This document shows, in pieces, positions 4,173 to 24,227 of a stretch of DNA of 25,861 nucleotides. The notes under the pieces were generated by a model. That model saw only the letters and a program-made list of their open reading frames with translations. It searched no databases and was not told the DNA's origin. Within the stretch, counting starts at the first letter, position 1. The number at the start of each line of letters is the position of its first letter. Position numbers and translations under genes: made by a program. The DNA comes from a virus: UHGV virus genome UHGV-0115523, one strand, 5' to 3'.

Positions 4173-4218
4173 AGGGAAAGGTTGCCATCAGGGGAAGAAA
4201 GGCGGCAGTGCTGCAACT

Positions 4219-4236
4219 TGTATCAGTGCTGATACA
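4219..4236 (-). promoter_or_regulatory. Candidate Ogr/Delta/B-type late activator site (TGT-N12-ACA) of the V-operon late promoter
   Basis: Perfect TGTatcagtgctgatACA between the S stop and the V start, centred about 55 bp upstream of the V ATG. Confidence 0.5.
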
Positions 4237-4240
4237 AAGA

Positions 4241-4687
4241 TCACCCCGCCAGCCATTGCAGAATCATGTCGCGGGTCATTGCCTCAACATCATCATTTAC
4301 ACCCAGAAGGCGACGCTCTGCGTAACGCACCTCCGGTCCCTTACGACTGACGCGATCTCGCAGGCCGTAATGGTGAACGCGGGCAATGCGCTGCACCTTG
4401 CCTTCAAACTGCACGCTGGCAGAGTCGGTGCTGGCGGCAGTTTTCAGGTATTTTGTGGTGCGCAGCTTTGCAAACATCTGACGTTTGATACGGCCTTTTT
4501 TACTGCGTGCTGTTACCCGTCGCGGTTCATAGCTGCTGCCGTCAGGGTTCCGCTGCATCCTGATATTCTGCTGCTGTGTCCGGCGAAGTTCCTGCGCCAG
4601 CTGGCGCATCATGCGGCTTCTCGAGGCTGGTTCCAGATTCGCCAGCAAGGCACTCAGCCAGTCGTCCACCTTCTGCAGTTCAGCCAC
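4241..4687 (-). CDS. S: Tail completion / virion morphogenesis protein (P2 gpS-like)
   Basis: 148 aa; synteny R-S-V. Confidence 0.8.
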   Translation of the reverse strand: MAELQKVDDWLSALLANLEPASRSRMMRQLAQELRRTQQQNIRMQRNPDGSSYEPRRVTARSKKGRIKRQMFAKLRTTKYLKTAASTDSASVQFEGKVQRIARVHHYGLRDRVSRKGPEVRYAERRLLGVNDDVEAMTRDMILQWLAG

Positions 4688-5111
4688 GTTTCACCGTCCA
4701 CATTTCTTCAGGTGCATCAGGTTCCGCTATAGCTTCAACGCTCGACACACTGCCGTCAGTGCTGACCAGCACACGTTCCGTCAGTTGCAGGTTCAGGCTG
4801 ATATCACAGACATCGTTGCGCAGAATATCCACCTCAAAGGTGAATAGCTTTTCCCGTAACGCCGGGTTATTGATGGCATCGGGCTGGTTATCCCTCAGCC
4901 ACAGCAAAACCGGGGCCATCAGCAGATTCTGGTCGCCGCTGAAATCCTCAATCACCGCGTTCAGTGTGTAACGGTACTCCCACGACATGGAGCTGGCCCC
5001 CGTGGCAACCAGCGAACCGTTATCCACAAACAGATGCAGTTTGTCCGGGTTATTGCGGACATAAGGCACCGCTTTATTGAGGGCGTGGCGCAGGGATTGT
5101 GGTTTGTTCAC
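4680..5111 (-). CDS. R: Tail completion protein (P2 gpR-like); probable GTG start
   Basis: Frame begins VNKPQSLRHAL, similar to the P2 R N-terminus; GTG at 5109-5111 is preceded by AGGAG; the ORF-track ATG at 5132 is an alternative. Confidence 0.7.
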   Translation of the reverse strand: MNKPQSLRHALNKAVPYVRNNPDKLHLFVDNGSLVATGASSMSWEYRYTLNAVIEDFSGDQNLLMAPVLLWLRDNQPDAINNPALREKLFTFEVDILRNDVCDISLNLQLTERVLVSTDGSVSSVEAIAEPDAPEEMWTVKRG

Positions 5112-5364
5112 TGTTTCGCTCCTGACACGCAATAATCATGTCCACTTTGTCTGCACAGACCGCCCAGGCGGCCTCCGTTTCATCCAGCAACGCGTTCAGA
5201 TCACCGTTAGTGCGCGGCGTTGCCTGATCCAGCCGACACGGCGTCACTCGCGGACAACCACTGACGGTAAGCCATACCTCCGGTGAGTGCCGGACGTTTC
5301 CGCAGCCGGATAATGTCAGCAGGCAAAGGAGTATCAGCCCAGCGGCGTAAATCCTCGTTCTCAC
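5074..5364 (-). CDS. lysC: Outer-membrane spanin lipoprotein (LysC / Rz1-like) in an overlapped frame
   Basis: N-terminal signal with lipobox LTLSGC; overlaps the 3' half of the LysB/Rz-like gene in another frame and extends beyond it, as in P2 lysB/lysC. Confidence 0.6.
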   Translation of the reverse strand: MRTRIYAAGLILLCLLTLSGCGNVRHSPEVWLTVSGCPRVTPCRLDQATPRTNGDLNALLDETEAAWAVCADKVDMIIACQERNSEQTTIPAPRPQ

Positions 5365-5635
5365 GTTTCAGTTCCTCGATCCGGTGTTGTCGTTGTCTCA
5401 GCAGCGTGCTGGTCTGTTCTGCTTCGGCATAGAGCCGCGCCTGCTCCCGGTTATTGGTTTCAGTCAGAATGGACAGGCTGATAAGCTGGCTATTGCTCTT
5501 TGCCAGTGCCTGGCTTTTGCTCTGCAGCTCGTCTGCCTGCGTGCTGATGGTCTGGCTGGCATCAGCCAGCCGCCACGTCTGCCAGCCCAGCGCCGCCAGT
5601 AATAACGTCAGCACAACCAGCAGCAACCGGTTCAT
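5207..5635 (-). CDS. lysB: Inner-membrane spanin (LysB / Rz-like)
   Basis: N-terminal TM segment LLLVVLTLLLAALGW followed by a charged coiled-coil-like region; position in the lysis cassette. Confidence 0.7.
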   Translation of the reverse strand: MNRLLLVVLTLLLAALGWQTWRLADASQTISTQADELQSKSQALAKSNSQLISLSILTETNNREQARLYAEAEQTSTLLRQRQHRIEELKRENEDLRRWADTPLPADIIRLRKRPALTGGMAYRQWLSASDAVSAGSGNAAH

Positions 5636-6009
5636 GCTGCTACCTGTTGCGCCATCTGATTACGGGTGATCCAGAAGGCAATAACGGTCAGTAGATAAAA
5701 GACCAGGGTAATAGCCCACCCCGTCCAGGCGAGACTTACAACAATCAGCAATCGCATCACCCAACTGGTAAATACGTTTTCTTTTCGGGTAATTGTCTTC
5801 AGCAAAGATGCCCTTAACTCCTGCCAGAGCGGGCCATTCTTAATTAACGCAGCCAGTGCTACCGGAATTACCGCCCATGTCAGCAAACAGGCTACCCAAA
5901 CGCCGGACGCTGCCAGTACCGGAAAAATCCCCTGCGGATACACCATTGCTGCGATTAACAGCGCCATCCATAACATCAGAAACAGTCCGCTGATTAATTT
6001 CTTTTTCAT
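5632..6009 (-). CDS. lysA: LysA-like membrane protein (lysis timing); start trimmed to MKKKLISGLF
   Basis: Multiple hydrophobic TM segments; ATG at 6007-6009 preceded by GGGAG, one nt after the endolysin stop; position between endolysin and spanins as in P2. Confidence 0.55.
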   Translation of the reverse strand: MKKKLISGLFLMLWMALLIAAMVYPQGIFPVLAASGVWVACLLTWAVIPVALAALIKNGPLWQELRASLLKTITRKENVFTSWVMRLLIVVSLAWTGWAITLVFYLLTVIAFWITRNQMAQQVAA

Positions 6010-6010
6010 T

Positions 6011-6523
6011 TCAGTTTGCTCCCTGTAAACACCAGGCCATCTCCCGCGCACGGCGGTTATCCAGCCCCTGATTAAAAACACCTTTCACATAAACCCAGCG
6101 CGGCAACTGTCGGCATGCATCCGCCCAGCGCCGCTGATTGAGCAATTTCACCAGCGTGGAACTACAGGCATTGCCCGTCCCCACGTTGAAGGCAAACGAC
6201 ACCGTAGCGTCATACACCTTCTGCGGCGGCTGTTGCTTCACACACCTTTCCAGCGCCCGCTCCACTCGTAGCACGTTGGAGATCAGCCCTTCAGCTGCCT
6301 GTCGTTCCGTAATAATTTTGCCGGGAATGACGCCCGACGTATTACCAATGCCGTCGGTCCAGACACCCGCGCTGCACTGATACGGCTGCAGACGACAGCC
6401 TTCATAATCGGCGATCAGTTTCAGTCCCTCCTCGGAGGTGTGAAGCTGCTGAAACCCCGGCAGCGTGGCAGCAATAGCCAGCACGGCCCCGACAAGGCAG
6501 CGTTTAACGATTGATGGATTCAT
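6011..6523 (-). CDS. SAR endolysin, T4/P1-Lyz-type lysozyme with N-terminal signal-anchor-release domain
   Basis: Gly/Ala-rich N-terminal hydrophobic segment CLVGAVLAIAATLPGF; lysozyme motif EGCRLQPYQCSAGVWTDGIGNT; Cys9/Cys43/Cys50 positioned like the regulatory cysteines of P1 Lyz. Confidence 0.75.
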   Translation of the reverse strand: MNPSIVKRCLVGAVLAIAATLPGFQQLHTSEEGLKLIADYEGCRLQPYQCSAGVWTDGIGNTSGVIPGKIITERQAAEGLISNVLRVERALERCVKQQPPQKVYDATVSFAFNVGTGNACSSTLVKLLNQRRWADACRQLPRWVYVKGVFNQGLDNRRAREMAWCLQGAN

Positions 6524-6719
6524 AGTCCTCCCGCGAGATCTGCCCGTCGCGCAGAAGCTGGTAGGCTTTGTGTTTGTAGTACCAGTTGATAGCCAGCATC
6601 AGCACACCGATCATCAGGCCGCCCAGCGTTGAGGCATCCTTGATGGACAAATCGCCCAGCCAGGCCAGCACGACGGCGATGCAATACGTGATAAAGGCGC
6701 TGATTCGCTCAAGCGTCAT
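6504..6719 (-). CDS. Holin (small two-TM holin, likely pinholin partner of the SAR endolysin)
   Basis: 71 aa, two hydrophobic segments, charged C-terminus; immediately upstream of and overlapping the endolysin. Confidence 0.65.
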   Translation of the reverse strand: MTLERISAFITYCIAVVLAWLGDLSIKDASTLGGLMIGVLMLAINWYYKHKAYQLLRDGQISREDYESINR

Positions 6720-6722
6720 AAT

Positions 6723-6926
6723 TCAGTCCCATAGCTGGACGGTCTGCACGGTGGTGGTTGTCGGAATGTCCGGCAGCTCCACCTGCAGCCCGTGAGGTAA
6801 AAAGGGGCCGTATTCGGCAAGCCCCGGATTTGCCTTCAGTACCTGCTCCGTGACACCCTGCGTGCGCCCGTAATGACGCCAGCAAAGTGCGTCCACCGTG
6901 TCATACTGATGCGCACGCACTTTCAT
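6723..6926 (-). CDS. X: Tail protein X (P2 gpX-like)
   Basis: 67 aa, the same length as P2 gpX; position between L and the holin. Confidence 0.7.
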   Translation of the reverse strand: MKVRAHQYDTVDALCWRHYGRTQGVTEQVLKANPGLAEYGPFLPHGLQVELPDIPTTTTVQTVQLWD

Positions 6927-7390
6927 CAGATAAGCTCCACTGTGCAGTGCGGCGCATCCTGCACCCGGCTGATGGCCCAGCGGGCGTCACGCCATAAATC
7001 ACCGCTTGCTTCCGCCAGTTCCTCGCCTCGCTTCGCACCGGATGCCGTGGCGTCATAGTCCTGGTAACGTTCGTTGAGCATGGCGCGTGCCCAGCAGTAA
7101 ACCGCGTTGAAATAGTGCTGAATGCGCTCGCTTTTGCCGTCCAGTTGTTCCGCCGGGACTTCTGCCAGCGAGGCATACCCCAGCATCTGCTGGCGTCTGC
7201 GAAACTCATACAGCTCTGCGTTGACCTCCGAAATTGCCGACAGGGCAACCTGTTTTAAACGCGGCTGCGTCACCGTGCCGTCAGTGCGCATCACACTGCG
7301 AAACTCCGACAGGTCCACATCAGGCCAGAACGGCGTATTCCTGATGATTTCCGCCTGTTCCGGTGCCTGTTCTGGCGCAACAAACTTCAT
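6926..7390 (-). CDS. L: Head completion / stabilisation protein (P2 gpL-like); start trimmed to MKFVAPEQ
   Basis: ATG at 7388-7390 preceded by AGGAG; synteny M-L-X. Confidence 0.75.
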   Translation of the reverse strand: MKFVAPEQAPEQAEIIRNTPFWPDVDLSEFRSVMRTDGTVTQPRLKQVALSAISEVNAELYEFRRRQQMLGYASLAEVPAEQLDGKSERIQHYFNAVYCWARAMLNERYQDYDATASGAKRGEELAEASGDLWRDARWAISRVQDAPHCTVELI

Positions 7391-7485
7391 GCTGCTTTCT
7401 CCTGAAATAGAGGGCGGTGGACGGGGTTTTGATGTGGCAGTACCTTTCGCCACCCCGTGCCGCCCGTGCGCGGGGGCACGTTCTG

Positions 7486-8136
7486 TCAGCGGCTGTCATT
7501 GCGCAGTCTGCGCTCCAGCTGCTGTTTGTCTTTTTTCACGCCACAGCGGGGATCGAGCTGTAACGCATGGTTGAGATGATTAAGGGCAGACGCCGGATTT
7601 CTTTCACTCAGGACAGCGCCAATCGCTTTATGCAGACGCGCCCGTGACTGGTCCGGCATATCCATACCGTCTGTCAGCTCCAGGGTCTGCAGCAACAGAT
7701 CGGCATCAAAGCCGGTGGCGGCAAGCATTGCGCTCTGGGCTGCATCTGCCATTTCCTCTGCCAGCACGGTCTGCACGTTGCGGTTACCTAACGGCATCAC
7801 CCAGCCATGACGCAGGGCGTGACGCCCGATCTCCAGCGCCCCGGCATAATCTCCGGCATCAATGCGCCACAGCATCACGTACATCAGCACGTCATCCTGT
7901 TGAGCGCCTCCGGCAGCCAGGACACCCTCCGCCCAGGCGGCGTACTTCGGCAGCAGCTCCACCTTGATTTCCGCTTTTTTGACCGTGGACTGAACGCCCT
8001 TGAGACGGCGGCGGTCTTCCGCCAGTTGCAGCAGCATCAGGTCATAGCCCGACGCGTGGCGAACGCTGCCGCCCTCGCGGGCGGCCTGTTCAGCCTGAAC
8101 GCGCAGGCGATGCTGCCGTGCGGGACTCAGGCTCAT
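7486..8136 (-). CDS. M: Terminase endonuclease (small) subunit (P2 gpM-like)
   Basis: 216 aa; directly downstream of capsid gene N; synteny O-N-M-L. Confidence 0.75.
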   Translation of the reverse strand: MSLSPARQHRLRVQAEQAAREGGSVRHASGYDLMLLQLAEDRRRLKGVQSTVKKAEIKVELLPKYAAWAEGVLAAGGAQQDDVLMYVMLWRIDAGDYAGALEIGRHALRHGWVMPLGNRNVQTVLAEEMADAAQSAMLAATGFDADLLLQTLELTDGMDMPDQSRARLHKAIGAVLSERNPASALNHLNHALQLDPRCGVKKDKQQLERRLRNDSR

Positions 8137-8139
8137 GAA

Positions 8140-9198
8140 TTACGCTCCGGTTTCTGCTGCTGCGGCGCTGAAGTCGCCAATCTGGATGTTTTCCACCAGT
8201 GCGGCGCAGCGGTAGTCCTCAACCACATAGGCTTCGTTAACGGATTCAAAGTTTTCAATCCGGTCACGTTTCGGGTTGTCGATAACTGAGCGGCGGCGGG
8301 TGTCTTCCTGCCAGTAGATGGACAGGTTATCCAGACGGGTGATCAGCAGTGCATTCGGCGGGAAGAACGGCGCACGCACGGCCTGCAGGCCACCCATGCG
8401 TTTTTGACTGATGATCATATCGGCAGCCAGTTTTTCACTGTTTTCCTGCTCTTTGTTGACCAGCGGGAAATACTTGTCAGACAGCAGTTCACGACCGCAA
8501 ATCACCACCAGATCGTCATCGTCCTGGTAGACCACATCGATAAGCTCATTGACGGCATCCATCACCACGGCGTCCAGGTTGGCATATTCGCCACCTTTCC
8601 CGACTTTCACCGCACCCGGTGTGGTTTCACCGCCCGTGGTGGTGCTGCCCATGACGTGATCCGGTGCATCTTCACGGATTTTCTGCAGCCAGCCTTTGTT
8701 CACATCCTGCAGCAGCGGGTTTTCGCTACGGTTGGAGGTTTTCGCACGCTTCACGCCGTTAAAGCCGATCATGATGCGGTCCAGAGCCTGACGTTTCACG
8801 ATGGCGTCACGGATGCGCACCTGGAAATCCTGAAACTTCGCCCACAGGTCCAGCTTCGCGTAGGTCAGCACCGTGTCAAAGTTGGTCTGCTCGCATTTAT
8901 ATTCCACATCGACCATCAGCGTCGGATCGACAGGTTCACGCTCTTTCGCGGTGGTGTCAGTGGTTCCGGCAATGGTGCTGCCAACTCCCAGCCCCAGCAG
9001 CTGACCGGACTGCTCAGTCACTGGCGTGACGTTAATCAGCGTCAGGAAAGCGGCGGACTGCTGGATCTGGTCTTCCAGCGTCTGCTGCACAGACGGCTCC
9101 ACAGTGAACTTGCTGGACAGTTCTTCAACTGCCACACCGTTCAGACGCGCCAGCTGCTGCAGGTAAGCGTTAAAAGCAAAGCGGGTATTCTTCTTCAT
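8140..9198 (-). CDS. N: Major capsid protein (P2 gpN-like)
   Basis: 352 aa (P2 gpN is about 357 aa); translation typical of P2-family capsid precursor; synteny. Confidence 0.85.
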   Translation of the reverse strand: MKKNTRFAFNAYLQQLARLNGVAVEELSSKFTVEPSVQQTLEDQIQQSAAFLTLINVTPVTEQSGQLLGLGVGSTIAGTTDTTAKEREPVDPTLMVDVEYKCEQTNFDTVLTYAKLDLWAKFQDFQVRIRDAIVKRQALDRIMIGFNGVKRAKTSNRSENPLLQDVNKGWLQKIREDAPDHVMGSTTTGGETTPGAVKVGKGGEYANLDAVVMDAVNELIDVVYQDDDDLVVICGRELLSDKYFPLVNKEQENSEKLAADMIISQKRMGGLQAVRAPFFPPNALLITRLDNLSIYWQEDTRRRSVIDNPKRDRIENFESVNEAYVVEDYRCAALVENIQIGDFSAAAAETGA

Positions 9199-9214
9199 CG
9201 GGTTTTGTGCTCCA

Positions 9215-10048
9215 TCAGCAATTGGTCAGAGTGTCAGCGGGGGCGTTACCGCCTGTTGCACGCTGGCGGTAGTCCTGGCGGCTGTCTTCATGACTCAGCT
9301 TGTCCACCAGTTCGTTAAAGGCGGTTTGCTGTGCCTGCAGGGCAGTCTCCAGCTCAGACAGGCGTTCTTCCTGCTCAGACAGGGATTTTTCGGTGCGTGC
9401 GCTCAGGTTCTGCTGCTCAGTGGCGACCAGCTCCACGGCCTTATGCACATCAGAGAACCGGGCGTCATCGGACTGCTCTTTTTTGGTAAACAGCGCCGTG
9501 ACACGGGCAAACAGGGACGGTTTTTCCTCCTGGATTTCTTCCAGTTCGATCACCGTTTCCTCTGCAGCGGTAAAAAGATTGGCGGGATTCTGCTTGCGGT
9601 TTGCCAGCGGGTTATGGGCTGCACTGGCGCTGAATGTCAGCATTTCAGTACCCAGACTGGCGGGATCATCAGTGGCAGCCAGGCCGACCAGGTAGGCTTT
9701 GCCCGTATCAGCAAACTTCGGGCTGACTTCCATAGAGGTGAATAATTTCTGGCCTTTTTTCACCAGCTCCACCAGGGACTCTGTTGGCTCAACGTCGGCA
9801 TACAGCGCCATCTTGCCCGCCAGCGGACCTTCCGTGATTTCTTCAGCAAACAATGCCGTCACCTTGCCGTAGCGATTAAAGGTGCTGTCCGGCAGATAAG
9901 ACTTGATGTGCTCAAGGTTAATCAGCGCGGTATACACCGCCGGGTTGTAGCTGGCTGCCATCTGTTCCAGCCATTCACGCTGGATTTCGCGTCCGTCGGT
10001 GGTGGCACCTTCCACCCCGATGCGAAAACGCTTTGCTTTCACTGTCAT
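9215..10048 (-). CDS. O: Capsid scaffolding protein (P2 gpO-like)
   Basis: 277 aa; acidic coiled-coil-rich C-terminal half; divergent from P with a shared late promoter region. Confidence 0.85.
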   Translation of the reverse strand: MTVKAKRFRIGVEGATTDGREIQREWLEQMAASYNPAVYTALINLEHIKSYLPDSTFNRYGKVTALFAEEITEGPLAGKMALYADVEPTESLVELVKKGQKLFTSMEVSPKFADTGKAYLVGLAATDDPASLGTEMLTFSASAAHNPLANRKQNPANLFTAAEETVIELEEIQEEKPSLFARVTALFTKKEQSDDARFSDVHKAVELVATEQQNLSARTEKSLSEQEERLSELETALQAQQTAFNELVDKLSHEDSRQDYRQRATGGNAPADTLTNC

Positions 10049-10190: not shown

Positions 10191-11957
10191 ATGAACACCA
10201 CACTGACACCCGCAGATCTCGATCCCCGTCGGCAGGCCATGCTGCTGTACTTTCAGGGATACCGCGTAGCCCGCATTGCTGAAATGCTGGGCGAGAAAGT
10301 TGCAACCGTTCACAGCTGGAAAAAACGCGACAAATGGGGTGACTATGGGCCGCTGGATCAGATGCAGCTCACCACCGCCGCACGCTACTGCCAGCTCATC
10401 ATGAAGGAGCACAAAGAAGGGAAAGATTTCAAAGAGATTGACCTGCTGGCGCGCCAGTCGGAGCGCCACGCGCGGATCGGCAAGTTTAACAATGGCGGCA
10501 ACGAAGCCGACTTAAACCCTAACGTCGCCAACCGCAACAAAGGCCCGCGCCGTCAGCCGGAAAAGAATGTCTTCACCGATGAACAGATTGAGAAGCTGGA
10601 AGAAATCTTCCATTCCTCCATGTTCAACTACCAGCGCCACTGGTGGGAAGCCGGAAAAACCAACCGCATCCGCAACCTGCTGAAGTCACGCCAGATCGGC
10701 GCGACCTTCTATTTTGCCCGTGAAGCCCTGATTGACGCTCTGCTGACCGGACGTAACCAGATTTTCCTTTCCGCAAGCAAGGCACAGGCCCACGTCTTTA
10801 AGCAGTACATCATCGACTTCGCCAAAGAAGTGGAGGTGGAGCTGAAAGGTGATCCGATGGTGCTTCCCAACGGGGCCACGCTTTACTTCCTCGGCACCAA
10901 TGCCCGCACGGCCCAGAGTTATCACGGCAACCTGTATCTGGATGAATATTTCTGGATACCGAAATTCCAGGAGCTGCGCAAAGTGGCTTCCGGTATGGCT
11001 ATTCACAAGAAATGGCGACAGACCTATTTTTCCACGCCATCCAGTCTGACACACAGTGCTTATCCGTTCTGGTCCGGTGCGCTGTTCAACCGTGGGCGCA
11101 ACAAAGCTGACAAGGTGGACATCGACCTGTCCCACAGCAATCTGGCCCCCGGCCTGCTGTGCGCAGACGGGCAATACCGCCAGATAGTCACCGTGGAAGA
11201 TGCGGTGCGCGGCGGCTGTAACCTGTTCGACCTTGACCAGTTGCGCATGGAGTACAGCCCGGACGAATACCAGAACCTGCTGATGTGTGAGTTCGTGGAC
11301 GATCTCGCGTCCGTGTTCCCGCTCAGCGAGCTGCAGGCGTGCATGGTGGACAGCTGGGAAGTCTGGACCGACTTTCATGCACTGGCTCTGCGCCCGTTTG
11401 GCTGGCGCGAAGTGTGGATCGGTTATGACCCGGCAAAAGGTACGCAAAACGGCGACAGCGCCGGATGCGTGGTGGTGGCACCGCCAGCCGTGCCGGGCGG
11501 CAAGTTTCGCATTCTTGAGCGTCACCAGTGGCGCGGGATGGACTTCCGCGCCCAGGCTGACGCGATCAAAAAACTGACCGAACAGTACAACGTGACCTAT
11601 ATCGGTATCGACTCGACCGGCGTTGGTCACGGGGTTTATGAGAACGTGAAAGCGTTCTTTCCTGCCGTCCGGGAGTTTGTCTACAACCCCAACGTTAAAA
11701 ACGCCCTGGTACTCAAGGCCTACGACATTATCAGCCACCGCCGTCTGGAGTTTGACGCCGGGCACACCGACATTGCGCAGTCATTTATGGCAATCCGTCG
11801 CGCCACCACCGCCAGCGGCAACCGCCCGACCTATGAAGCCAACCGCAGCGAAGAAGCCAGCCATGCCGATCTGGCCTGGGCAACAATGCACGCACTGTTT
11901 AACGAACCGCTGCAGGGCGAGTCCGCCAATACCAGCAATATTGTGGAGATTTTTTGA
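10191..11957 (+). CDS. P: Terminase ATPase (large) subunit (P2 gpP-like)
   Basis: 588 aa (P2 gpP is about 590 aa); N-terminus MNTTLTPADLDPRRQAMLLYFQGYRVARIAEMLGEKVATVHSWKKRDKW; stop overlaps the Q start. Confidence 0.9.
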   Translation: MNTTLTPADLDPRRQAMLLYFQGYRVARIAEMLGEKVATVHSWKKRDKWGDYGPLDQMQLTTAARYCQLIMKEHKEGKDFKEIDLLARQSERHARIGKFNNGGNEADLNPNVANRNKGPRRQPEKNVFTDEQIEKLEEIFHSSMFNYQRHWWEAGKTNRIRNLLKSRQIGATFYFAREALIDALLTGRNQIFLSASKAQAHVFKQYIIDFAKEVEVELKGDPMVLPNGATLYFLGTNARTAQSYHGNLYLDEYFWIPKFQELRKVASGMAIHKKWRQTYFSTPSSLTHSAYPFWSGALFNRGRNKADKVDIDLSHSNLAPGLLCADGQYRQIVTVEDAVRGGCNLFDLDQLRMEYSPDEYQNLLMCEFVDDLASVFPLSELQACMVDSWEVWTDFHALALRPFGWREVWIGYDPAKGTQNGDSAGCVVVAPPAVPGGKFRILERHQWRGMDFRAQADAIKKLTEQYNVTYIGIDSTGVGHGVYENVKAFFPAVREFVYNPNVKNALVLKAYDIISHRRLEFDAGHTDIAQSFMAIRRATTASGNRPTYEANRSEEASHADLAWATMHALFNEPLQGESANTSNIVEIF

Positions 11958-12985
11958 TGGGAAAGAGTAAGAAGAACCGCGCTGCGGCGACGAATCAGAT
12001 CCAGTATAAAAAACAAACTTCAGCCGAAGCATTCAGCTTCGGTGATCCCGTTCCTGTTCTGGACCGCCGCGAATTACTGGACTATGTGGAATGCGTACAG
12101 ACAGATCGCTGGTATGAGCCGCCAGTAAGCTTTGACGGACTGGCGCGCACCTTCCGCGCCGCCGTGCATCACAGTTCACCAATTGCGGTGAAATGCAACA
12201 TTCTGACCAGTACCTACATCCCTCACCCGCTGCTCAGCCAGCAGGCTTTTTCACGTTTTGTGCAGGACTATCTGGTATTTGGTAACGCCTACCTGGAGAA
12301 ACGCACGAACCGCTTCGGTGAAATTATCGCCTTTGAACCTGCCCTGGCAAAATACACACGACGCGGGTTAGACCTGGATACCTACTGGTTTGTGCAATAC
12401 GGTATGACAACCCAGCCGTATCAGTTCACGAAAGGCAGCATTTTTCATCTGATGGAACCGGACATCAACCAGGAGATCTACGGCCTGCCCGGTTATCTTT
12501 CTGCCATTCCGTCAGCCCTGCTCAACGAGTCCGCCACGCTGTTCCGCCGGAAGTATTACATTAACGGCAGTCATGCAGGCTTCATCATGTACATGACCGA
12601 CGCCGCACAAAACCAGGAGGATGTGAACAACCTCCGCAACGCGATGAAAAGCGCCAAAGGCCCAGGTAACTTCCGCAACCTGTTTATGTACTCGCCTAAC
12701 GGCAAAAAGGACGGGCTTCAGATCATCCCGTTGTCAGAAGTCGCGGCGAAGGATGAGTTTCTGAATATCAAAAATGTCAGCCGCGATGACATGATGGCTG
12801 CGCACCGCGTACCGCCTCAGATGATGGGGATTATGCCAAATAATGTAGGGGGGTTTGGAGATGTGGAGAAGGCTAGTAAGGTATTTGTACGCAACGAACT
12901 GATGCCGCTTCAAAAGCGCTTCGAGGAATTGAATAGTTGGGTAGGAAAATCTGTGGTCAACTTTAACACTTATATATTATCTTAA
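11954..12985 (+). CDS. Q: Portal protein (P2 gpQ-like)
   Basis: 343 aa (P2 gpQ is about 344 aa); P-Q on the strand opposite to O-N-M-L, as in P2. Confidence 0.9.
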   Translation: MMGKSKKNRAAATNQIQYKKQTSAEAFSFGDPVPVLDRRELLDYVECVQTDRWYEPPVSFDGLARTFRAAVHHSSPIAVKCNILTSTYIPHPLLSQQAFSRFVQDYLVFGNAYLEKRTNRFGEIIAFEPALAKYTRRGLDLDTYWFVQYGMTTQPYQFTKGSIFHLMEPDINQEIYGLPGYLSAIPSALLNESATLFRRKYYINGSHAGFIMYMTDAAQNQEDVNNLRNAMKSAKGPGNFRNLFMYSPNGKKDGLQIIPLSEVAAKDEFLNIKNVSRDDMMAAHRVPPQMMGIMPNNVGGFGDVEKASKVFVRNELMPLQKRFEELNSWVGKSVVNFNTYILS

Positions 12986-12986
12986 T

Positions 12987-13029
12987 AAACATCTCTTGCA
13001 GGAAACTTCCCTGCAAGAGATGTTTTGCA
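12987..13029. terminator. Bidirectional intrinsic terminator between convergent Q and the cargo operon
   Basis: Perfect 15-16 bp inverted repeat aaacatctcttgcagg / cctgcaagagatgttt around a 7-nt loop, flanked by T-runs on both strands. Confidence 0.65.
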
Positions 13030-13036
13030 ATGACAC

Positions 13037-13318
13037 TCAAAAAGATAATAATCGCCCCCCAACATTTTCGATAAAATCTAACTCTAACTCCTCCATATCG
13101 GATATTATCATGAGATGAATAGGCAATATCAATTGAAGTTTATTTATTTTCATTCTCAAAAGAATAACATCTGGAACATAACCAACGATTAAAATATCGA
13201 TGTCATTGGCTTCATCGATACTTTTGAGTGCGGAGCCAAACAAATAAACCCGGACTCCATACAAGCAATGCTCCAAAATAATATCACAAACAGCTTCAGT
13301 TATAACTGATAAATTCAT
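13037..13318 (-). CDS. Minimal nucleotidyltransferase (MNT, Pol-beta superfamily) domain protein, about 93 aa; start trimmed to the Met that overlaps the upstream stop
   Basis: Motif LFGSALKSIDEANDIDILIV fits hG[GS]-x9-DhD; ATG at 13316-13318 overlaps the upstream TGA (TGATG coupling); AT-rich. Confidence 0.6.
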   Translation of the reverse strand: MNLSVITEAVCDIILEHCLYGVRVYLFGSALKSIDEANDIDILIVGYVPDVILLRMKINKLQLILPIHLMIISDMEELELDFIENVGGRLLSF

Positions 13319-13968
13319 CACTTCGAAATTCGACTCAGCAAATCTCCCCATTTGAATATTTCAATATTCATACTTCGGGCTGCAATGGTAGCCTCATGGG
13401 TAATTCTACTATAAGGGTTAGACGATAAAATAATATCGCAACCGCCATGTATCTGACATGCAGTGCGCACAGCCTCTGCACTCAAATCATAATCATTCAC
13501 GGAAAGAATAATCAAACTTGGTCCTGAACACCTTTCAACCATATATTTTTTATTGGTCAACCTTTCGACACTGCTGACATCAGAGTGTTGACGGAGTCCA
13601 CGGATAATAAATTTATTTTCTTTATCAAGATGTTCACTGATATTTTCTAAATCTAAACCCGTTGAAAAACGTCCAAAAGAATCATATGCAATCCCTTTTG
13701 ACCGTAGCAACTCAATTGCATCTCCAGACATAAATAACAAATCGCCTTGAATAATTAGTATATTTAATTCTTTATCATTCAAATATTCATTTAAATCGGA
13801 TAGTTCTATTCTTCCTGCATTTACAGCACCAACAAGATATATCTCCCCATTCCTTGTTGTTACCGTTAAAGTTTGATTGTCATGTTCTATAACATTATCA
13901 ACACTATGTTTAGTGCATAACTTTTTATTCATCCAATTAATAAAATTCTGACTCATTCCAATGCTCAT
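13318..13968 (-). CDS. Hypothetical 216-aa protein, middle gene of the cargo operon (contains an RGLRQH stretch; function unknown)
   Basis: Long ORF tightly coupled to flanking genes (3-nt gap upstream, 1-nt overlap downstream); AGGGTGA RBS; AT-rich. Confidence 0.5.
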   Translation of the reverse strand: MSIGMSQNFINWMNKKLCTKHSVDNVIEHDNQTLTVTTRNGEIYLVGAVNAGRIELSDLNEYLNDKELNILIIQGDLLFMSGDAIELLRSKGIAYDSFGRFSTGLDLENISEHLDKENKFIIRGLRQHSDVSSVERLTNKKYMVERCSGPSLIILSVNDYDLSAEAVRTACQIHGGCDIILSSNPYSRITHEATIAARSMNIEIFKWGDLLSRISK

Positions 13969-13971
13969 AAC

Positions 13972-14667
13972 TCACCCTTTAAATAAATCAATTGCTTCAG
14001 GAGGGAATTTCTCACCATTATCACATGTTAACTCTAAATGTTTTGATTCAAAATCATCAACATGCATGCAAAGCTTAACAAAAACATCTTTTTCATCTTC
14101 ATGAATTAATTGATAATTTTTATCAATTAGTCTTATAATTTTTCTGTTATTAGGTAGGATATGTGTTTGGATTTTCCTTAACCATATATTTACTTGCGGA
14201 CTTTCAGGGTTTAGTGCTGCCTCTGATTGGGGTCCATACGTATTAAATATTACTTTATTTTCCCTAAACAACTTATCAAGCTCAGCATGTACCTCTTCAC
14301 GGCTATCAAACTCACGAACTCCAAAGGTTGCATTAATTTTCGCGATATGCTCTCCTTTCCATCCCCTGATAATTTCATCCGTATAATAATTCTCAGCTTT
14401 ATCTATTTTAGTATGACAATTAGCGCAAAGAAGAATTATATTATCAAAATACCCTCTCTCTTCGGCAGTTAATTCCGTATTAGTTCTAGGCCCATTATCA
14501 ATTGCACTGAATATATGCGCCAATTCACCAATTGTAATAATTTTATCTCCAGCATCTTCGAACAACGGTTCAAGACATTTAGGGTTCTGGCAATACCCAC
14601 CTGAACTTGCGAAGAGCTTCCTGACTGTGATTGATCCGGGACTAGCCCGCCCTCGTGAACATGCCAT
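13972..14667 (-). CDS. HNH nuclease-domain protein (N-terminal HNH motif plus about 140-aa C-terminal domain of unknown function)
   Basis: CQNPKC ... ELAHI ... FDNIILLCANCH gives the CxxC...H...N...CxxCH HNH signature; AGGAGA RBS; first gene of the three-gene operon. Confidence 0.65.
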   Translation of the reverse strand: MACSRGRASPGSITVRKLFASSGGYCQNPKCLEPLFEDAGDKIITIGELAHIFSAIDNGPRTNTELTAEERGYFDNIILLCANCHTKIDKAENYYTDEIIRGWKGEHIAKINATFGVREFDSREEVHAELDKLFRENKVIFNTYGPQSEAALNPESPQVNIWLRKIQTHILPNNRKIIRLIDKNYQLIHEDEKDVFVKLCMHVDDFESKHLELTCDNGEKFPPEAIDLFKG

Positions 14668-14786
14668 TTCGTATCTCCTGATTGGGTTCGAATTTTACAA
14701 TAAATTATGATAATCAAACAAATTTAGCTAGCAAATAAATTTCCTATGTCGTTTAATTTCCCTAGCGTTTTAATATCAAGCGCGCG

Positions 14787-14805
14787 CTCGTATCCCCGCC
14801 ACGCC
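14787..14805 (-). other. Candidate cos (cohesive end) site of the P2/186 type
   Basis: Minus-strand GGCGTGGCGGGGATACGAG resembles the remembered 19-nt cohesive ends of 186 (GGCGTGGCGGGGAAAGCAT) and P2 (GGCGAGGCGGGGAAAGCAC); lies at the expected place beyond the 3' end of Q. Confidence 0.5.
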
Positions 14806-15147
14806 TGCCCGCTTTATGTAGTGGTTTTCATGCAGGTGCATGATCTACGCAAAAGCCCGCCAGTTCTGGCGGGCCTTAGCAAAAACGATCCTCAAACGAT
14901 CATGCAATCTCATGCAGCATAGACATGCACAGACGAGTAAAGCGAATCGGACCTTACGCAAGGTGAACTCCTCAGCGGGCATAATCAGTATGTCGGAAGA
15001 TCTCTAAAAATAAATAATTCGGTTAACAGGTATGCTTACAAAAGCATATATTTGATTAAAAATCATGTAAGGGGGAGGATCTCAAACTGAATCGCCACGG
15101 GTTTTACAAATTTCGATAGTCTCTCTAACGTTTCGGCTGAGGTCAAA

Positions 15148-15573
15148 ATGAAAAGCTTTTACGTATTAATTTTAATTCTGGTTGCAAGCTTTGTTAGCGT
15201 CCCAGTTCAGGCGGTAACAGCTAAAAACTATGAGAAAGGAACTAAAGCTCAACAGAAATCAATATCTTACCTTTCATGTGCATTCTATGGCAGTAGCACA
15301 CAATTAGATCCTAGCTACACGGAGCAAGTACCTACAGCCGATATCAAGATATTACAGAAAGCAGCTTACCACGCTTACAACGATGCGCTCTCATACTTTG
15401 GCTATGAGGAACCAGATCACGAACAACGCATAATTGATTATGCTGAATTTGTGGCGTCGCAAGAAGCTGTGTTATGGGATAAGCCGGGAATGAATGGAAA
15501 GCAGGTAACACTAATTGCTCGTTCTCTCTACAATGAGAGTAACTGTAACTTGTTACTGGACTCAATTAAGTAG
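15148..15573 (+). CDS. Secreted or periplasmic hypothetical protein with cleavable signal peptide (cargo)
   Basis: N-terminus MKSFYVLILILVASFVSVPVQA then mature domain; GAGGT RBS; AT-rich. Confidence 0.55.
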   Translation: MKSFYVLILILVASFVSVPVQAVTAKNYEKGTKAQQKSISYLSCAFYGSSTQLDPSYTEQVPTADIKILQKAAYHAYNDALSYFGYEEPDHEQRIIDYAEFVASQEAVLWDKPGMNGKQVTLIARSLYNESNCNLLLDSIK

Positions 15574-15732
15574 GAAAAAGATGGTATTTTGCCCGTAGTT
15601 TCAACCTTAATCTCCGAACCTGTCGCAGAACGGGCGTTCACTCATCAAATAAACGCCACACCTAACGCCTCACTGTACTCGTTGTTCAACCTTGCTGACG
15701 CCAGAACCAAGTTCAGACGCCAGCAACTTTTC

Positions 15733-15966
15733 TTAATGCAGCCAGCTGTCGTCTTCCCACACCTTCTGCATAATCTTCATCACTTGTTTTCTTTCTTCGT
15801 CCAGTTGCAGTCCGGTCAGTTCCACACCGTTAGAGCTACCTTTGCGGATGCGAATTACCATTTTGGGATACAGGGGGCGCAGATTGCGGTAAAGCTCGGA
15901 TTCAAGGGCGTCCAGGGTAGACTGGCTAATCTTCTGCTCTTTATCGATCATTATTTCAATGCGCAT
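15733..15966 (-). CDS. DinI-family protein (about 77 aa)
   Basis: MRIEIMIDKEQKISQSTLDALESELYRNLRPLYPKMVIRIRKGSSNGVELTGLQLDEERKQVMKIMQKVWEDDSWLH matches the DinI pattern (MRIE..., acidic W-containing C-terminus); GAGGTG RBS; the ORF-track frame extends upstream to 16038 but that start is less likely. Confidence 0.65.
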   Translation of the reverse strand: MRIEIMIDKEQKISQSTLDALESELYRNLRPLYPKMVIRIRKGSSNGVELTGLQLDEERKQVMKIMQKVWEDDSWLH

Positions 15967-15976
15967 AAAGGTCACC

Positions 15977-16165
15977 TCAGCTGATGACATCCATTGAGCG
16001 GTTGTATTCGTGGGTTCTGATTTTTGCCATGAGTTCATCAGTCAATTCAGAAACCCACTGCAGAGCCAGCCCCTTCTCTTCATCACTACACTCACTAGCC
16101 GCTACAAGCTTAAGAAAAAAATCAATGCGCTGGAGCTTCAAAGACTCCAAAAAATAGTCCTGCAT
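15977..16165 (-). CDS. Small 62-aa protein, first gene of a LexA-box-controlled cassette
   Basis: Strong AGGAGG RBS 7 nt upstream of the ATG; LexA box 43-58 bp upstream; stop 10 nt before the DinI-like start. Confidence 0.5.
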   Translation of the reverse strand: MQDYFLESLKLQRIDFFLKLVAASECSDEEKGLALQWVSELTDELMAKIRTHEYNRSMDVIS

Positions 16166-16207
16166 CTTTCCTCCTATGACACCAAAGTAATACTGTATAT
16201 ATAACCA

Positions 16208-16223
16208 CTGTCTATATTTACAG
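16208..16223 (-). promoter_or_regulatory. LexA (SOS) box CTGT-N8-ACAG
   Basis: actgtctatatttacagta is near-consensus to TACTGTATATATATACAGTA; an adjacent half-site tactgtatat lies at 16191-16200. Confidence 0.65.
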
Positions 16224-16317
16224 TATATAATAATCTTACTGATGTAAAACGTTTTTTTACGTTCATCAGCCTGAAATGCCTGGTATTATTAAGAGCACGA
16301 ATTGTTAACCCGCGTAA

Positions 16318-18732
16318 TTAATACAGGTTCCGCCACTTATCATCTTCCTGCAAACGCTGGTTCCGATAGAAGATACGCAGGCCTGCTCCTGACGGAATAC
16401 TGCCGCCGCGAAGGAGTAAATCGACCTCTTTCTCGCTGCCATCAAATCCTCTGGACTTCAGTTCATAGACGAGCTGCTGTCGCTGATGGTCTGTAATTCG
16501 CTGTTTGTAGTCTTTACGCCGTTTCGGTTTCACCAGGCGTAACCTTGCAGCCAGTTCCCGGCGCTCTTTTTTGCTCATACTGTGCAGGTATTCGTGCAAC
16601 TCCTTGTCATCCATGCGGGTAATGTCCGTTCTGGTATCCCCATCAGCTGATTTGTCTTCCCCTTGTTGGTTCAAATTTTCAGCAAGGGGACAGTTATTGC
16701 CACGAGTCCAAGGGGCGCAAGCGCCCTGGTCGGCTGCCGCCTCCTGAACGTCAACGGCTTTACGAACCATTTTCCACTTCACTGCATGAGTGCAGATCTT
16801 GCCCTCTGCAATGGGTGACCAGATGCCATAAATACGAATGCCGTGATCGCCATAGGCGGTCGGCTCTTCGTTGATTTCATAAGCGGTTCTGATGAGGTGA
16901 TATTTACGGGGAACCAGCACGCCGCCCTGCTTCATGATGTAGGTGGCAAAACAACCAGCATCAGCAGCAGCCAAGATGGCATCAAGGCGCGGGTTATCCA
17001 GTACCGGCGCACCTGCTTTTTTGTCCCCCTGTTGCCTTGACGCCTGACCAGCCAGCAATCGCAGTTCACGGTAAGCCTGACGCCCCGGAATGCCAAAGAA
17101 GCGGAATTGCTGAACACGATGCAAAGACGCCCAGGCGTTCACGTATTCAGCGTTATCACGCAGAGATTTACCCGTTACCTTGCTGATCTCGCCAGCCAGA
17201 CCACGCCCGTCAATGTTCTTACTGATGTATTTCGCTATGTAGCTTGTCGGCGTTCCTTTGCGCGGGTTAATCAGCTCAGACTTAAAGCGCGGCCCCGTGT
17301 TATTGCCCAGCTCCTCGCGGTCTTCACGGATAGCAAACTTACGCAACAATGCAGTAATGGCGCGGCGGTCTTTTTTGCGCATGAAACACAACAGGTGCCA
17401 GTGAACTGTGCCGTCGTGATGCGGCTCAGCCACCCGCACGCCATACCAGCGCAACCCGGCTTTGTGCATCGCCTTACGAAATGCAGCAAACATACCGACC
17501 AGATAATCGCTGCTTTGTCTTACCGTCGCATTTGTCCAGGTCGGGTTGGGCCTGCCGTTATTTAGCGTGGAATGGAAACGTGACGGACAGGTGATGGTGT
17601 AGAAAACGGCGCAGTCACCGCGCATTTCCGCGATAAGCTCCAGACCTTTAACACAGGCCATCATCTCATTGCGGCGATGCGCAGGGTTGCTGCTGCTGGC
17701 GTTTACCACATCCTCCATGTCCAGCGTGTCGCCGTCTTCGTTCACCAGTTCATGAGAACGGAAAAACTCCAGCGACTTACGGCGCTGCTCACGTTTATGC
17801 AACACGGCTTCATAGCTGACATAGGGAGATGCTTTTTTGCTGACAAGGCAGACAGCACGCAACTGCTCTTCCCGCCATTCGCAACGCATCTTCCATAATT
17901 TCCGATACCACCAATCGGCGCACAACATACGCGCCAGCGAACCCGGAATGAGTTCATAGGGCACGGGTTTACGGCGGTTTCTTTTCCGGCGGAGTTGCTC
18001 AAACGCAGGCGGGATGACATCCAGTCGCAGGGTTTCTGCTGCCACCTTTTCCCATGTCTTGCGGATTTCTTCTGGCTTAACATCATCGGTGGCGTACAAA
18101 TCACCACAAGCGGCATCAAGACACATACTCATATGCGCAGCGACAAGAGTAGACAGGCGTTTCACCTGATCCTGACTCATTTCAGGCAGGATCAGCAGGC
18201 CGTCCAGCCCTTCATGGCTTGCCATAAAGCGAAAAGAAGTGGATAGCTGACTGTCGCGTACATGCTCCAGTCGTTCCAGACATGGCTTAATCGTCTCACG
18301 CAAATAGCGGGAATAAGCCTTTGGCCTCCCCAGGCTGCTGAAGTATTCGATACGTTGCATCAGCGGCTTGCTGATGTGGGTGGGCTGGGCGCTGACGTCC
18401 GCCAGAATGACGATGTCCGGGTTAAAACGCTGCTGCTCATGCGCCAGCTTTGCCCGACTAATGAGCTTATCCTGCTCCATTTCGCGCTGGACAGGATCAC
18501 GGGATTCATTAAAGAAATAACGCTCCCAGACCTGTTCACTCAATTCCTCGCGGCGCAGCTGTTCCTGCTCGTTATCGGCAGCATACAGAGTGATCAGGTT
18601 TGAAAGCGCAGAAACCGGCGCAACTTCCGCCGGGTCCAGATAAGGGTTTATGGCCTTTTTCGGGCCGTTCCATGAAAATGCTGCAGCGGCCTCGTTAAAG
18701 CCGCTAGAGTCGCTCATATCGGCATGACTCAT
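16318..18732 (-). CDS. A: Replication initiation endonuclease (P2 gpA-like, rolling-circle initiator)
   Basis: 804 aa; position upstream of cos and downstream of the early genes as in P2/186. Confidence 0.8.
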
Positions 18733-19586
18733 ACACGCACCTCGTACACAGCAGAACTATCCACGCCACGCGAAGGATCAAATCCCATCCAGCAGCGCGC
18801 CCCGGAAACAGCAATGATTTCTGTTGCAGATTTACTCTCGCCAGCCGACACGCCGATGCTGCGTTTTGCCTTGATGTAGTGGTGAGTGAAATTGCGATAC
18901 AGCGAACGAATCAGGGATGTGTCACTGTTAGAAACAATGACCGGATGACCTTCAGATGATCGATGTTCAAGAACGGATGCCAGGTGATACTGGTCATCTT
19001 CAGTGAAACCATCAGTGTGATAGCCGGAAAACGTACCGTCATAAGGCGGATCGCAATACACCACATCCCCCGCCTTCAACATCGCCAGCGTTTCATCAAA
19101 GCTGGCGCAGATAAACGTTGCCCGCGGGGCTTTCTCTGCAAATGCGCGAATTTCTTTTTCAGGGAAATACGGATTTTTATAATTACCGTAGGGAATGTTG
19201 AAATGCCCGCTCTTGTTATAGCGACATAAACCACGGTAACCGTGACGATTGAGATACAGGAAATATATCGCCTTCATGAAATCAGTAATTTCAGTTGAGT
19301 AATTAAACTCCTGTCTTATGTTGTAATAAGCCAGCTCACTGTTTGCTTCCTCAAATAAAACTCTGGCACGAGATATAAACGCTTCGCAATCAGCGGCAAT
19401 CTTTTTATAGAGGTTGATTAAATCAGGATTAATATCCGCAACCAGATAGCTGGGGTAATCCGTCGCCATCATCACAGCACAAGAACCCGCGAAAGGTTCA
19501 ACCAGTCGCGGGCCAGCAGGAAGGTATTTTTTCAGTTCGGACATAATGGCGGTTTTATTACCCGCCCATTTCAGGATGGTGCTCAT
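18729..19586 (-). CDS. dam: DNA adenine methyltransferase (Dam family); start trimmed to [11 protein letters not shown]
   Basis: N-terminal AdoMet-binding region FAGSCAV and catalytic DPPY motif; ATGA overlap with the upstream gene. Confidence 0.8.
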
Positions 19587-19885
19587 ACAGCACCTCCTGC
19601 AATAACATATCCTAAAGCTTCTAATGGGGTTAATGGGCGAAATGATAGCATCACCCATTGTTCTGAAACTGCCATGACGTCATTAACAGGAAGCACATGA
19701 GAGATAACAGCGGCCCATTCCTTACCCGTAAATACGCCATGCTTCCATTCACAAAGAGAAAGAACATCACCAACTTTATAGCCACGATCGTCTTTACGAA
19801 GTTCAGCCGTCTTTTGACCTGCAACCACAGCGTTGAAATACTTAGGTGCAATTTTTAATTGATGGATACGCACTGCCCTTGTCAT
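19583..19885 (-). CDS. Small ASCH/PUA-like (DUF3850-like) protein; start trimmed to MTRAVRIH
   Basis: About 100 aa; pattern resembles DUF3850 proteins common in P2-like early regions; ATGA overlap with the TraR-like gene. Confidence 0.45.
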
Positions 19886-24226: not shown

Positions 24227-24227
24227 T

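Follow-up and report, generated by a model that had tools for sequence, protein, structure and literature searches.

Two groups of described systems are among the closest to the locus considered here, and in both of them a nuclease is kept under control. In the cyclic oligonucleotide-based antiphage signaling system (CBASS), the HNH nuclease Cap5 is off until ligand-driven assembly into tetramers. In the short-Argonaute system SPARHA, activation occurs by target-driven assembly into filaments (PMC12738770). In type VII toxin-antitoxin systems (HepT/MntA, including the fused form FhepTA), a minimal nucleotidyltransferase (MNT) neutralizes its partner toxin by oligoAMPylating one of its tyrosines, and it also does so in cis in fused MNT-HEPN proteins (PMC13000451). 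Here, we describe a three-gene cassette in the virus genome UHGV-0115523, a 186/P2-like prophage; the whole stretch of 25,861 nucleotides that was analyzed is referred to as the window. The cassette lies on the minus strand between the portal gene, Q, and the cos site, and encodes an HNH protein (gene 1), an alpha/beta protein of a family without Pfam or PDB relatives (gene 2), and an MNT (gene 3). We discuss its distribution, the likely properties of the three proteins, and the possibility that it is an anti-phage module that pairs a nuclease of the Cap5 type with control of the type VII kind.

The interval between gpQ, cos, and gpA is the main defense hotspot of P2-like phages, with 1,650 arrangements among 18,150 loci (PMC9122126; bioRxiv 10.64898/2026.02.27.708500). 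In 19% of P2-like prophages, the hotspot has only genes of unknown function (bioRxiv 10.64898/2026.02.27.708500). The cassette illustrates cargo of this kind.

Three genes that travel as one unit

There are 172 indexed homologues of gene 1, uniform in length (~231 amino acids) and 42-83% identical; Flavobacterium, Pseudomonas, Nostoc, and Aureispira are among the sources. When 100,044 species genomes were scanned with a pattern, 90 relatives were returned, which are found in the Alpha-, Beta-, and Gammaproteobacteria, Bacteroidota, Actinomycetota, Cyanobacteria, Chloroflexota, Planctomycetota, Acidobacteriota, Gemmatimonadota, Omnitrophota, Desulfobacterota, and Leptospira. For genes 2 and 3, a word-index search under-reported the families (four and three clusters, respectively); this was corrected by an exhaustive hidden Markov model (HMM) search and an analysis of neighboring genes. 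The exhaustive search recovered 271 representatives of the gene 2 family at E <= 1e-3, nearly all of them 205-225 amino acids long.

Wherever the contig has room (~100 loci), gene 1 is followed by a homologue of gene 2 and then a homologue of gene 3, in the same order and on the same strand. The sample consists of 80 genome loci spread over many phyla, together with 7 contigs from viruses, contigs from metagenomes, and a Vibrio plasmid. The linkage also holds for distant homologues of gene 2; it fails only at the ends of contigs or in copies that are visibly degraded (L014, L032, L049, and L066). Hence, the three genes are one evolutionary unit and are obligately linked. They are also real genes rather than chance open reading frames (ORFs) of AT-rich DNA, because homologues with 32-50% identity across phyla match them in length and order. 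The RefSeq annotation of Escherichia coli ECE218 contains all three; its labels, in two E. coli genomes, are two hypothetical proteins and a "nucleotidyltransferase domain-containing protein". In a Pseudomonas atacamensis prophage (L005/L006), the MNT gene is present at 7359-7766 and was left uncalled by the source's gene finder; two-gene appearances of the system in annotations can, therefore, be artefacts.

In eight loci (L069, L071, L075, L076, L077, L079, L081, and L086, at ~5950-7400 in each), the system is encoded as a single fusion protein of ~465 amino acids. The hosts include cyanobacteria, Chloroflexota, Halomonas, and Desulfobacterales, among others; in Halomonas halodenitrificans (L071), the fusion is encoded at 5992-7389 and has 465 amino acids. 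These fusions combine a complete gene 1 with the transferase, but of gene 2 they retain the C-terminal half alone (HMM positions 113-214). One other locus (L070) has a fusion of genes 1 and 2 only, and in about eight more, gene 2 is short (~130 amino acids) and corresponds to the C-terminal half. Together, the content of the fusions and the short forms of gene 2 point to a minimal system of four domains: the HNH domain, the C-terminal domain of gene 1, one gene 2 domain, and the MNT. The system is, then, an unnamed candidate with a clear minimal core, and its natural single-chain versions are suited to biochemical and structural work.

The triad is carried on prophages, plasmids, and islands, and at non-phage chromosomal sites. 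In other genomes, its defense neighbors are AIPR, AbiH with DUF5677, DUF4365 with UvrD, type I restriction-modification genes, Lamassu LmuB/LmuC, AbiEii, RmrA, AriA, ShosA, and HEC-01B; integrases and prophages are also nearby. The unit is mobile, rare, and patchy, and it sits in defense slots or beside defense genes. In the loci examined, the triad is not accompanied by a methyltransferase or any other gene for self-marking.

Variable cargo of the cos-proximal hotspot

The original prediction regarded the cassette as a horizontally acquired operon in an accessory hotspot around Q, cos, and A, and comparison with other genomes agrees with this. A 4.1-kb query spanning Q to A was compared with 5426 complete E. 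coli genomes, of which 1293 have matching flanks. The cassette is present in only two of the flank-sharing genomes, ECE218 and ECE228 (2/5426 overall). At the same position, other flank-sharing genomes carry retron Ec67 or St85, SieB, RelA/SpoT-domain, DUF262/GmrSD, PIN+DUF6236, HIRAN+REase, P-loop NTPase, ATP-dependent nuclease, or OLD-like genes, among others. The two attributes of hotspot cargo are both found here: a position between gpQ and gpA beside cos, in a hotspot that is well documented (PMC9122126), and variability among related prophages. The cassette is horizontally acquired accessory cargo of the P2-family cos-proximal hotspot. Its AT-richness, which had been noted by eye, is borne out by a computed GC content of 0.349, compared with 0.547 for P and Q, 0.536 for A, and a median of 0.535 for the window. 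Among 50,697 records of deposited phage genomes, none has the cassette or gene 2.

The sub-slots to the left and right of cos vary independently; for example, a 141-amino-acid ORF of the window is replaced in ECE218 by a DUF4145 gene. E. coli GF4-3, in which 54% of the Q-to-A query is matched and a retron Ec67 gene lies inside the interval, probably shares the right-hand sub-slot of the window.

In other P2-like elements, the slot is filled by divergent alleles of the cassette: gene 2 is 77% identical in L002, and gene 1 is 95% identical in L090. In a third element (L091; IMG/VR UViG_2703718809_000018, positions 8001-9669), gene 1 is only 70% identical to that of the window, while the backbone proteins A, P, and DinI are 97%, 99.7%, and 99% identical, respectively. 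Because the backbone is nearly identical but the cassette allele is divergent, this element suggests allele swapping by recombination at the hotspot. Enterobacter sp. kpr-6 (L010, positions 3268-8441) also has a divergent allele in this slot; a Lamassu LmuB gene lies directly upstream of the cassette, and a truncated portal remnant of the P2 type lies downstream. Two defense-type cargos are stacked here, in what appears to be a decaying P2-like prophage.

The three proteins

Gene 1 had been described as an HNH nuclease with a C-terminal domain that could not be assigned, and this description holds for both parts. The HNH signature, CQNPKC...AHI...NIILLCANCH, is present. Residues C26, C31, H51, N76, C81, C84, H85, and D89 are essentially invariant in ~90 systems, with C26, C31, C81, and C84 making up the zinc site; H51, N76, and H85, which are the catalytic histidine and asparagine and the metal-binding histidine of the HNH motif, are present in the window protein, and 90-91 of 92 homologues share them. 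The best matches of gene 1 in PADLOC-DB v2 (the 2023 set; PADLOC below) are PDC-M68A (1e-28), CBASS endonuclease effectors and SAVED-HNH (~2e-21), and a Shedu variant (1e-12), with effector models matching the HNH domain at 1e-10 to 1e-21. Profile matches to the PDB cover residues 6-124. They include the HNH-APAZ protein of SPARHA (9om4, 2.4e-17; identified in PMC12738770) and entries for Cap5, ranging from 2e-16 to 4e-10 (8ysq, 2e-16; 7rwm, 7e-15; 8fm1, 1e-13; 7rwk is also included). The scores of Pfam HNH and HNH_2 are below their cut-offs, the HNH families of PHROGs match weakly, and NCBIfam and PHROGs gave nothing informative. By its profile matches, the HNH domain of gene 1 belongs to the immune-effector clade that includes CBASS Cap5 and SPARHA HNH-APAZ, and it has intact active-site residues. 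The C-terminal domain has no Pfam match among 116 members beyond spurious FliT hits, and no sequence-profile match to the PDB at E <= 10. Nonetheless, this domain has four invariant residues (W162, P172, N184, and H202) and three conserved motifs (NPES, ILPNNRR, and FRQHVDDxExxH).

Gene 3 has the signature GS-x9-DID, with F27, G28, S29, D39, and D41 invariant and E76 nearly so. Conservation of these GS...DxD...E residues indicates that catalysis is under selection. Pfam NTP_transf_2 matches at 2e-4, just above its cut-off, and a profile of 41 sequences is closest to AF0614 (5e-6), HI0073 (2e-5), and the MntA antitoxin 5yep (4e-3), consistent with the earlier assignment of gene 3 as a minimal nucleotidyltransferase of the MntA type. 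HI0073 is the MNT of the HI0073/HI0074 MNT-HEPN pair. HalB of Hailong is also among the nucleotidyltransferase matches, very weakly (E 0.13).

Gene 2 was modeled with AlphaFold2. With four sequences, the mean predicted local distance difference test score (pLDDT) was 71; with an alignment of 114 sequences, it rose to 96.8, with a predicted template modeling score (pTM) of 0.89. The model has two modules, each predicted to be alpha-beta-beta-beta-alpha-beta-alpha. Since hhalign finds the two halves to be homologous (probability 99%, E 5e-18, 98 columns), gene 2 consists of an alpha/beta domain duplicated within one chain. The residues conserved in the family, namely RGLxQH (Q127 and H128), R146, Y160, and R168, are kept in the C-terminal copy only. 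The most conserved of these is Y160, found in 86 of 87 aligned sequences, and H128 is also kept. The N-terminal copy lacks these conserved polar residues, and it is missing from the short (~130 amino acids) and fused forms.

The original prediction noted a loose fit of one stretch of gene 2 to the R-x4-6-H motif of HEPN proteins. The motif is real: R-x4-H is conserved family-wide as RGLxQH, and is found even in fusions (RFLANH in L071). A HEPN fold, on the other hand, is ruled out, since the high-confidence model is alpha/beta rather than all-helical; Pfam searches with the three protein families gave no HEPN or DUF86 match. Foldseek searches of the PDB with the gene 2 model returned nothing at E < 1e-3, the highest probabilities being for EndoMS (E 0.013) and RPB5, and the family (114 members for Pfam) has no Pfam, PADLOC, NCBIfam, or PDB-sequence match. 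There is distant similarity to proteins with a restriction-endonuclease fold, i.e., Mrr-like LlaBIII, NucS/EndoMS, Hjc, and type II enzymes, and the gene 2 domain, as modeled, probably has a distantly restriction-endonuclease-like fold. The canonical D...(D/E)xK residues are absent, there are no conserved acidic or lysine residues on strands 2 and 3, and the family does not conserve D159 and D161 of the window protein. An active PD-(D/E)xK nuclease is ruled out for gene 2 because the D...(D/E)xK residues are missing. The C-terminal domain of gene 1 and the whole gene 2 family are alike in one respect: they have no Pfam or PDB relatives and yet have invariant polar residues.

Comparison with known systems

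Gene 1 resembles Cap5 and the HNH-APAZ protein of SPARHA in having an N-terminal HNH domain, with the same four cysteines and H-N-H residues, and a putative regulatory domain after it. It differs from them in that the latter domain is an unrelated stretch of 115 amino acids without detectable relatives, and is neither SAVED nor APAZ. The cassette also has no CD-NTase or Argonaute; instead, the partners of the HNH protein are a protein that is predicted to be restriction-endonuclease-like and an MNT. CBASS cyclases (CD-NTases) have ~300 amino acids or more, and gene 3 matches no PADLOC cyclase model, although one fused homologue matches at 0.0025. There is likewise no sign of SAVED or another cyclic-nucleotide sensor: the SAVED-HNH model of PADLOC (4e-21) aligns over the HNH domain only, and the C-terminal domain of gene 1 has no relative in Pfam or the PDB. 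With neither a CD-NTase nor SAVED, membership in CBASS is ruled out.

The likeness to type VII HepT/MntA systems lies in the small MNT, which is paired or fused with a nuclease module, and in the conserved R-x4-H and invariant tyrosine of gene 2. Gene 3 has the signature of type VII MNTs (hG[GS]...DxD, with a third carboxylate). However, the presumed toxin is an HNH nuclease of the DNA type rather than a HEPN RNase, and the protein with R-x4-H is alpha/beta in its model. Moreover, the cassette has three components, with the MNT last in gene order. None of the cassette proteins matches the HEPN/MNT or PD-T7-2 models of PADLOC. Relative to PD-(D/E)xK domains (those of Mrr-like LlaBIII, AF1548, NucS/EndoMS, and Hjc, and the nuclease domains of Can2 and Card1), gene 2 differs in its Q/H, R, Y, and R residues, and also in its in-chain duplication.

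Two further candidates were compared with the cassette. PDC-M68 protein A, the best PADLOC match of gene 1, aligns over only positions 9-110 of 253. Membership in PDC-M68 is ruled out, since the match is to the HNH part only and genes 2 and 3 match no PADLOC model; no description of PDC-M68 was found in the literature searched. Rst_3HP (Rousset et al. 2022; "hp + hp + hp"), a validated system, is similar in that its three genes also have no clear Pfam domains and come from the same hotspot, between gpQ and gpA, in a P2-like prophage. Identity with Rst_3HP is ruled out, since its proteins in E. coli E1114 are ~330, 356, and 227 amino acids long and are unrelated in sequence; the motifs of the cassette proteins are absent from the tables of the Rst_3HP paper. 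Overall, PADLOC, Pfam, Rst_3HP, and the searchable literature yielded no named system and no description of the triad, with only the HNH domain of gene 1 being recognized; a very recent naming could have escaped these searches. Copies of the genes in databases all carry hypothetical annotations. The earlier failure to match the locus to a named system is thus upheld. As a class assignment made from sequence, the cassette would be a multi-gene, nuclease-based defense or toxin-antitoxin-like module without a name, in which the pairing of a Cap5-type HNH domain with an MNT appears to be unprecedented.

A proposed mechanism and its alternatives

We propose that the cassette is a candidate anti-phage module, probably acting by abortive infection, in which an HNH effector would be gated by an MNT in the manner of type VII systems. 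Our estimate of the probability of this reading is ~0.45. The HNH domain of gene 1 would be the DNA-cutting effector; its relatives Cap5 and SPARHA HNH-APAZ are silent until assembly. Gene 2 and the C-terminal domain of gene 1 would together form a regulatory or sensor scaffold. The MNT encoded by gene 3 would, while the cell is healthy, keep the nuclease off by nucleotidylylating (AMPylating) a partner, either gene 2 or gene 1, as MntA does to HepT, with Tyr160 of gene 2 being the best candidate for the acceptor. Infection would then interrupt or reverse the mark, releasing the nuclease. The proposal that the MNT marks a partner is drawn by analogy with the characterized role of MNTs. If the MNT gates the HNH domain, nucleotidylylation would regulate a DNA nuclease of the CBASS/short-Argonaute clade.

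Several points weigh against this proposal. In other genomes, many of the genes that immediately adjoin the triad have housekeeping roles (GMP synthase, ETF, and an ABC transporter). The known partner of an MNT is an all-helical HEPN protein with a tyrosine beside Rx4-6H, whereas gene 2 is alpha/beta in its model and its invariant tyrosine is 32 residues from the RGLxQH motif. Lastly, the single-chain fusions are not compatible with a labile protein antitoxin; a labile-antitoxin mechanism is therefore ruled out, and only an enzymatic or conformational switch is left, the former being compatible with the single-chain forms.

A more far-reaching form of the proposal would have the cassette represent a hitherto unrecognized immune system that spans phyla as three genes or one fused protein. 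Here, the MNT would either mark the invariant tyrosine of a catalytically rewired protein of the restriction-endonuclease fold with a nucleotide or make a nucleotide ligand for it, and the mark or ligand would gate a Cap5-type HNH DNase by way of a new regulatory domain. If this were so, enzymatic control of the type VII kind would not be confined to HEPN RNases but would reach DNA nucleases as well, along with a new sensor fold. Taken as a whole, this form is possible but doubtful.

Other accounts of the cassette give its parts different tasks. In a signaling system like CBASS or Hailong, which we think unlikely, gene 2 or the C-terminal domain of gene 1 would supply the substrate-binding half of the MNT, which would then make a nucleotide or short oligonucleotide, and binding of this ligand to the C-terminal domain or gene 2, or else its loss, would switch the HNH domain on. 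The HNH clade is indeed that of the ligand-activated Cap5. Moreover, the C-terminal domain is in the position of the SAVED sensor of Cap5 and has many invariant polar residues, H128, R146, Y160, and R168 of gene 2 would suit a pocket for a phosphate or nucleotide, and HalB of Hailong is, as mentioned, a very weak match of gene 3. However, the nearest relatives of gene 3 (93 amino acids) are AF0614, HI0073, and MntA, which are MNTs that modify proteins, and not CD-NTases, no signature of SAVED, CARF, or another known sensor was found, and covalent fusion of synthase and effector removes the point of a diffusible signal. Fusion also bears on the idea of a plain addiction (toxin-antitoxin) module that stabilizes prophages and other mobile elements and has no anti-phage role, since proteins in a single chain are incapable of differential stability. 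Although the pairing of a nuclease with an MNT resembles type VII toxin-antitoxin systems, and carriage by prophages, plasmids, and islands is in keeping with addiction, most of the tested cargo of this slot is defensive, and the relatives of the HNH domain are immune effectors. We regard addiction alone as quite unlikely, while noting that addiction and defense are not mutually exclusive.

Pol-beta-type transferases often act on the 3' ends of nucleic acids. This activity, together with the similarity of the gene 2 fold to Mrr-like LlaBIII, NucS/EndoMS, Hjc, and type II enzymes and the location of some loci beside restriction-modification genes, could be accommodated by a restriction-like system in which gene 2 recognizes some feature of invading DNA (its ends, its structure, or a modification) and brings in the HNH nuclease for direct cleavage, while the MNT either modifies the 3' ends of DNA or RNA or adjusts the activity of the complex, and the cell survives. 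A system of this kind is improbable given that no methyltransferase or self-marking gene accompanies the triad, gene 2 is without D...(D/E)xK, and the relatives of gene 3 modify proteins. Finally, HNH homing endonucleases are common in phages, and the cassette adjoins Q, P, and cos. Gene 1 might, on these grounds, serve the phage itself, either as a packaging nuclease like HK97 gp74 or as a homing endonuclease with two passenger genes. This is effectively refuted. The cassette is missing from 1291 of the 1293 flank-sharing E. coli genomes and from all 50,697 phage genomes, which rules out a gp74-like packaging nuclease or a core gene of 186-like phages, in line with the comparison of the Q-cos junction that the original prediction had called for. 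The same triad is also found in non-phage chromosomal and plasmid contexts across phyla, and the weak matches to the HNH families of PHROGs likewise speak against a phage function.

Locus layout and neighboring genes

The features of the cassette are listed in Table 1. The terminase gene P (10191-11957) and the portal gene Q (11954-12985) are on the plus strand to the left of the cassette, such that the three minus-strand ORFs, which lie between the end of Q at 12985 and cos, face Q. The original prediction of three tightly coupled genes was accurate in its coordinates, junctions, motifs, and ribosome-binding site. Genes 1 and 2 are separated by a 3-nt gap (TGA-GTT-ATG), and genes 2 and 3 overlap by 1 nt (TGATG). 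An alternative start for gene 3, an upstream ATG at 13351, would give a 104-amino-acid form; alignment of homologues favors the 93-amino-acid form.

Table 1. Positions in the window of the cassette genes, their domains, and nearby signals
Feature	Position	Strand	Description	Basis
Gene 1	13972-14667	minus	231 amino acids; predicted HNH nuclease with conserved C-terminal domain	ORF
Gene 2	13318-13968	minus	216 amino acids; tandem duplication of alpha/beta domain	ORF
Gene 3	13037-13318	minus	93 amino acids; minimal nucleotidyltransferase (MNT), Pol-beta superfamily	ORF
Gene 1, residues 13-116	14320-14631	minus	HNH (beta-beta-alpha-metal) domain with four-Cys zinc site	Profile matches
Gene 1, residues 117-231	13975-14319	minus	Conserved C-terminal domain	Conserved residues; family matches none
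Gene 2, residues 1-105	13654-13968	minus	N-terminal copy; degenerate, dispensable	Residue loss; missing in short and fused forms
Gene 2, residues 106-216	13321-13653	minus	C-terminal copy, the core domain; RGLxQH, R146, Y160, R168	
Promoter-like hexamers	14707-14734	minus	TTGCTA-16-TATCAT, 5' of gene 1 (weak)	9/12 consensus match
Ribosome-binding site	14675-14679	minus	AGGAG, 8 nt ahead of gene 1 ATG	Read from sequence
Hairpin	12987-13025	none	19-nt arms, between convergent stops of Q and gene 3	Inverted repeat
cos core	14793-14805	minus	GGCGTGGCGGGGA, presumed 186-type; right-hand slot boundary, outside the system	Single exact match

The cassette had been credited with its own promoter-like region and ribosome-binding site. 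The ribosome-binding site is present ahead of gene 1; the promoter is not well supported, since the match is weak and promoter-like matches upstream of gene 1 are not enriched (15 in the region, compared with 10.2 +/- 3.3 in shuffled sequences). The arms of the hairpin are 95% complementary with a 1-nt loop. A terminator scan did not call it, as there is no T-run; it could act as a bidirectional terminator. A match to the cos core, which we take to be the cos sequence of 186, is expected 0.02 times by chance. A search of 12800-16400 with Rfam gave no match at E <= 1, i.e., no noncoding RNA partner of the type III toxin-antitoxin or retron-like kind.

To the right of cos are the 141-amino-acid ORF, a DinI-like gene, and then the replication gene A (16318-18732). 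The 141-amino-acid ORF (15148-15573, plus strand) is in the second sub-slot, between cos and the DinI-like gene. It has no Pfam or PADLOC match, has a GC content of 40%, and encodes a hydrophobic N-terminus resembling a signal peptide. Immediately downstream of A is a gene for a D12-class (Dam-like) adenine methyltransferase (18729-19658, minus strand). Because ECE218 and L002 also carry this gene, it is part of the phage lineage and not of the cassette.

A second candidate defense cargo is located in another P2 slot, between the CI repressor and integrase genes. It consists of two overlapping plus-strand ORFs, 23024-24226 and 24219-24749, of 400 and 176 amino acids, with a GC content of 32.8%. 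Neither has a Pfam match; they match PADLOC PDC-M18 A (2e-36) and B (5e-24), respectively.

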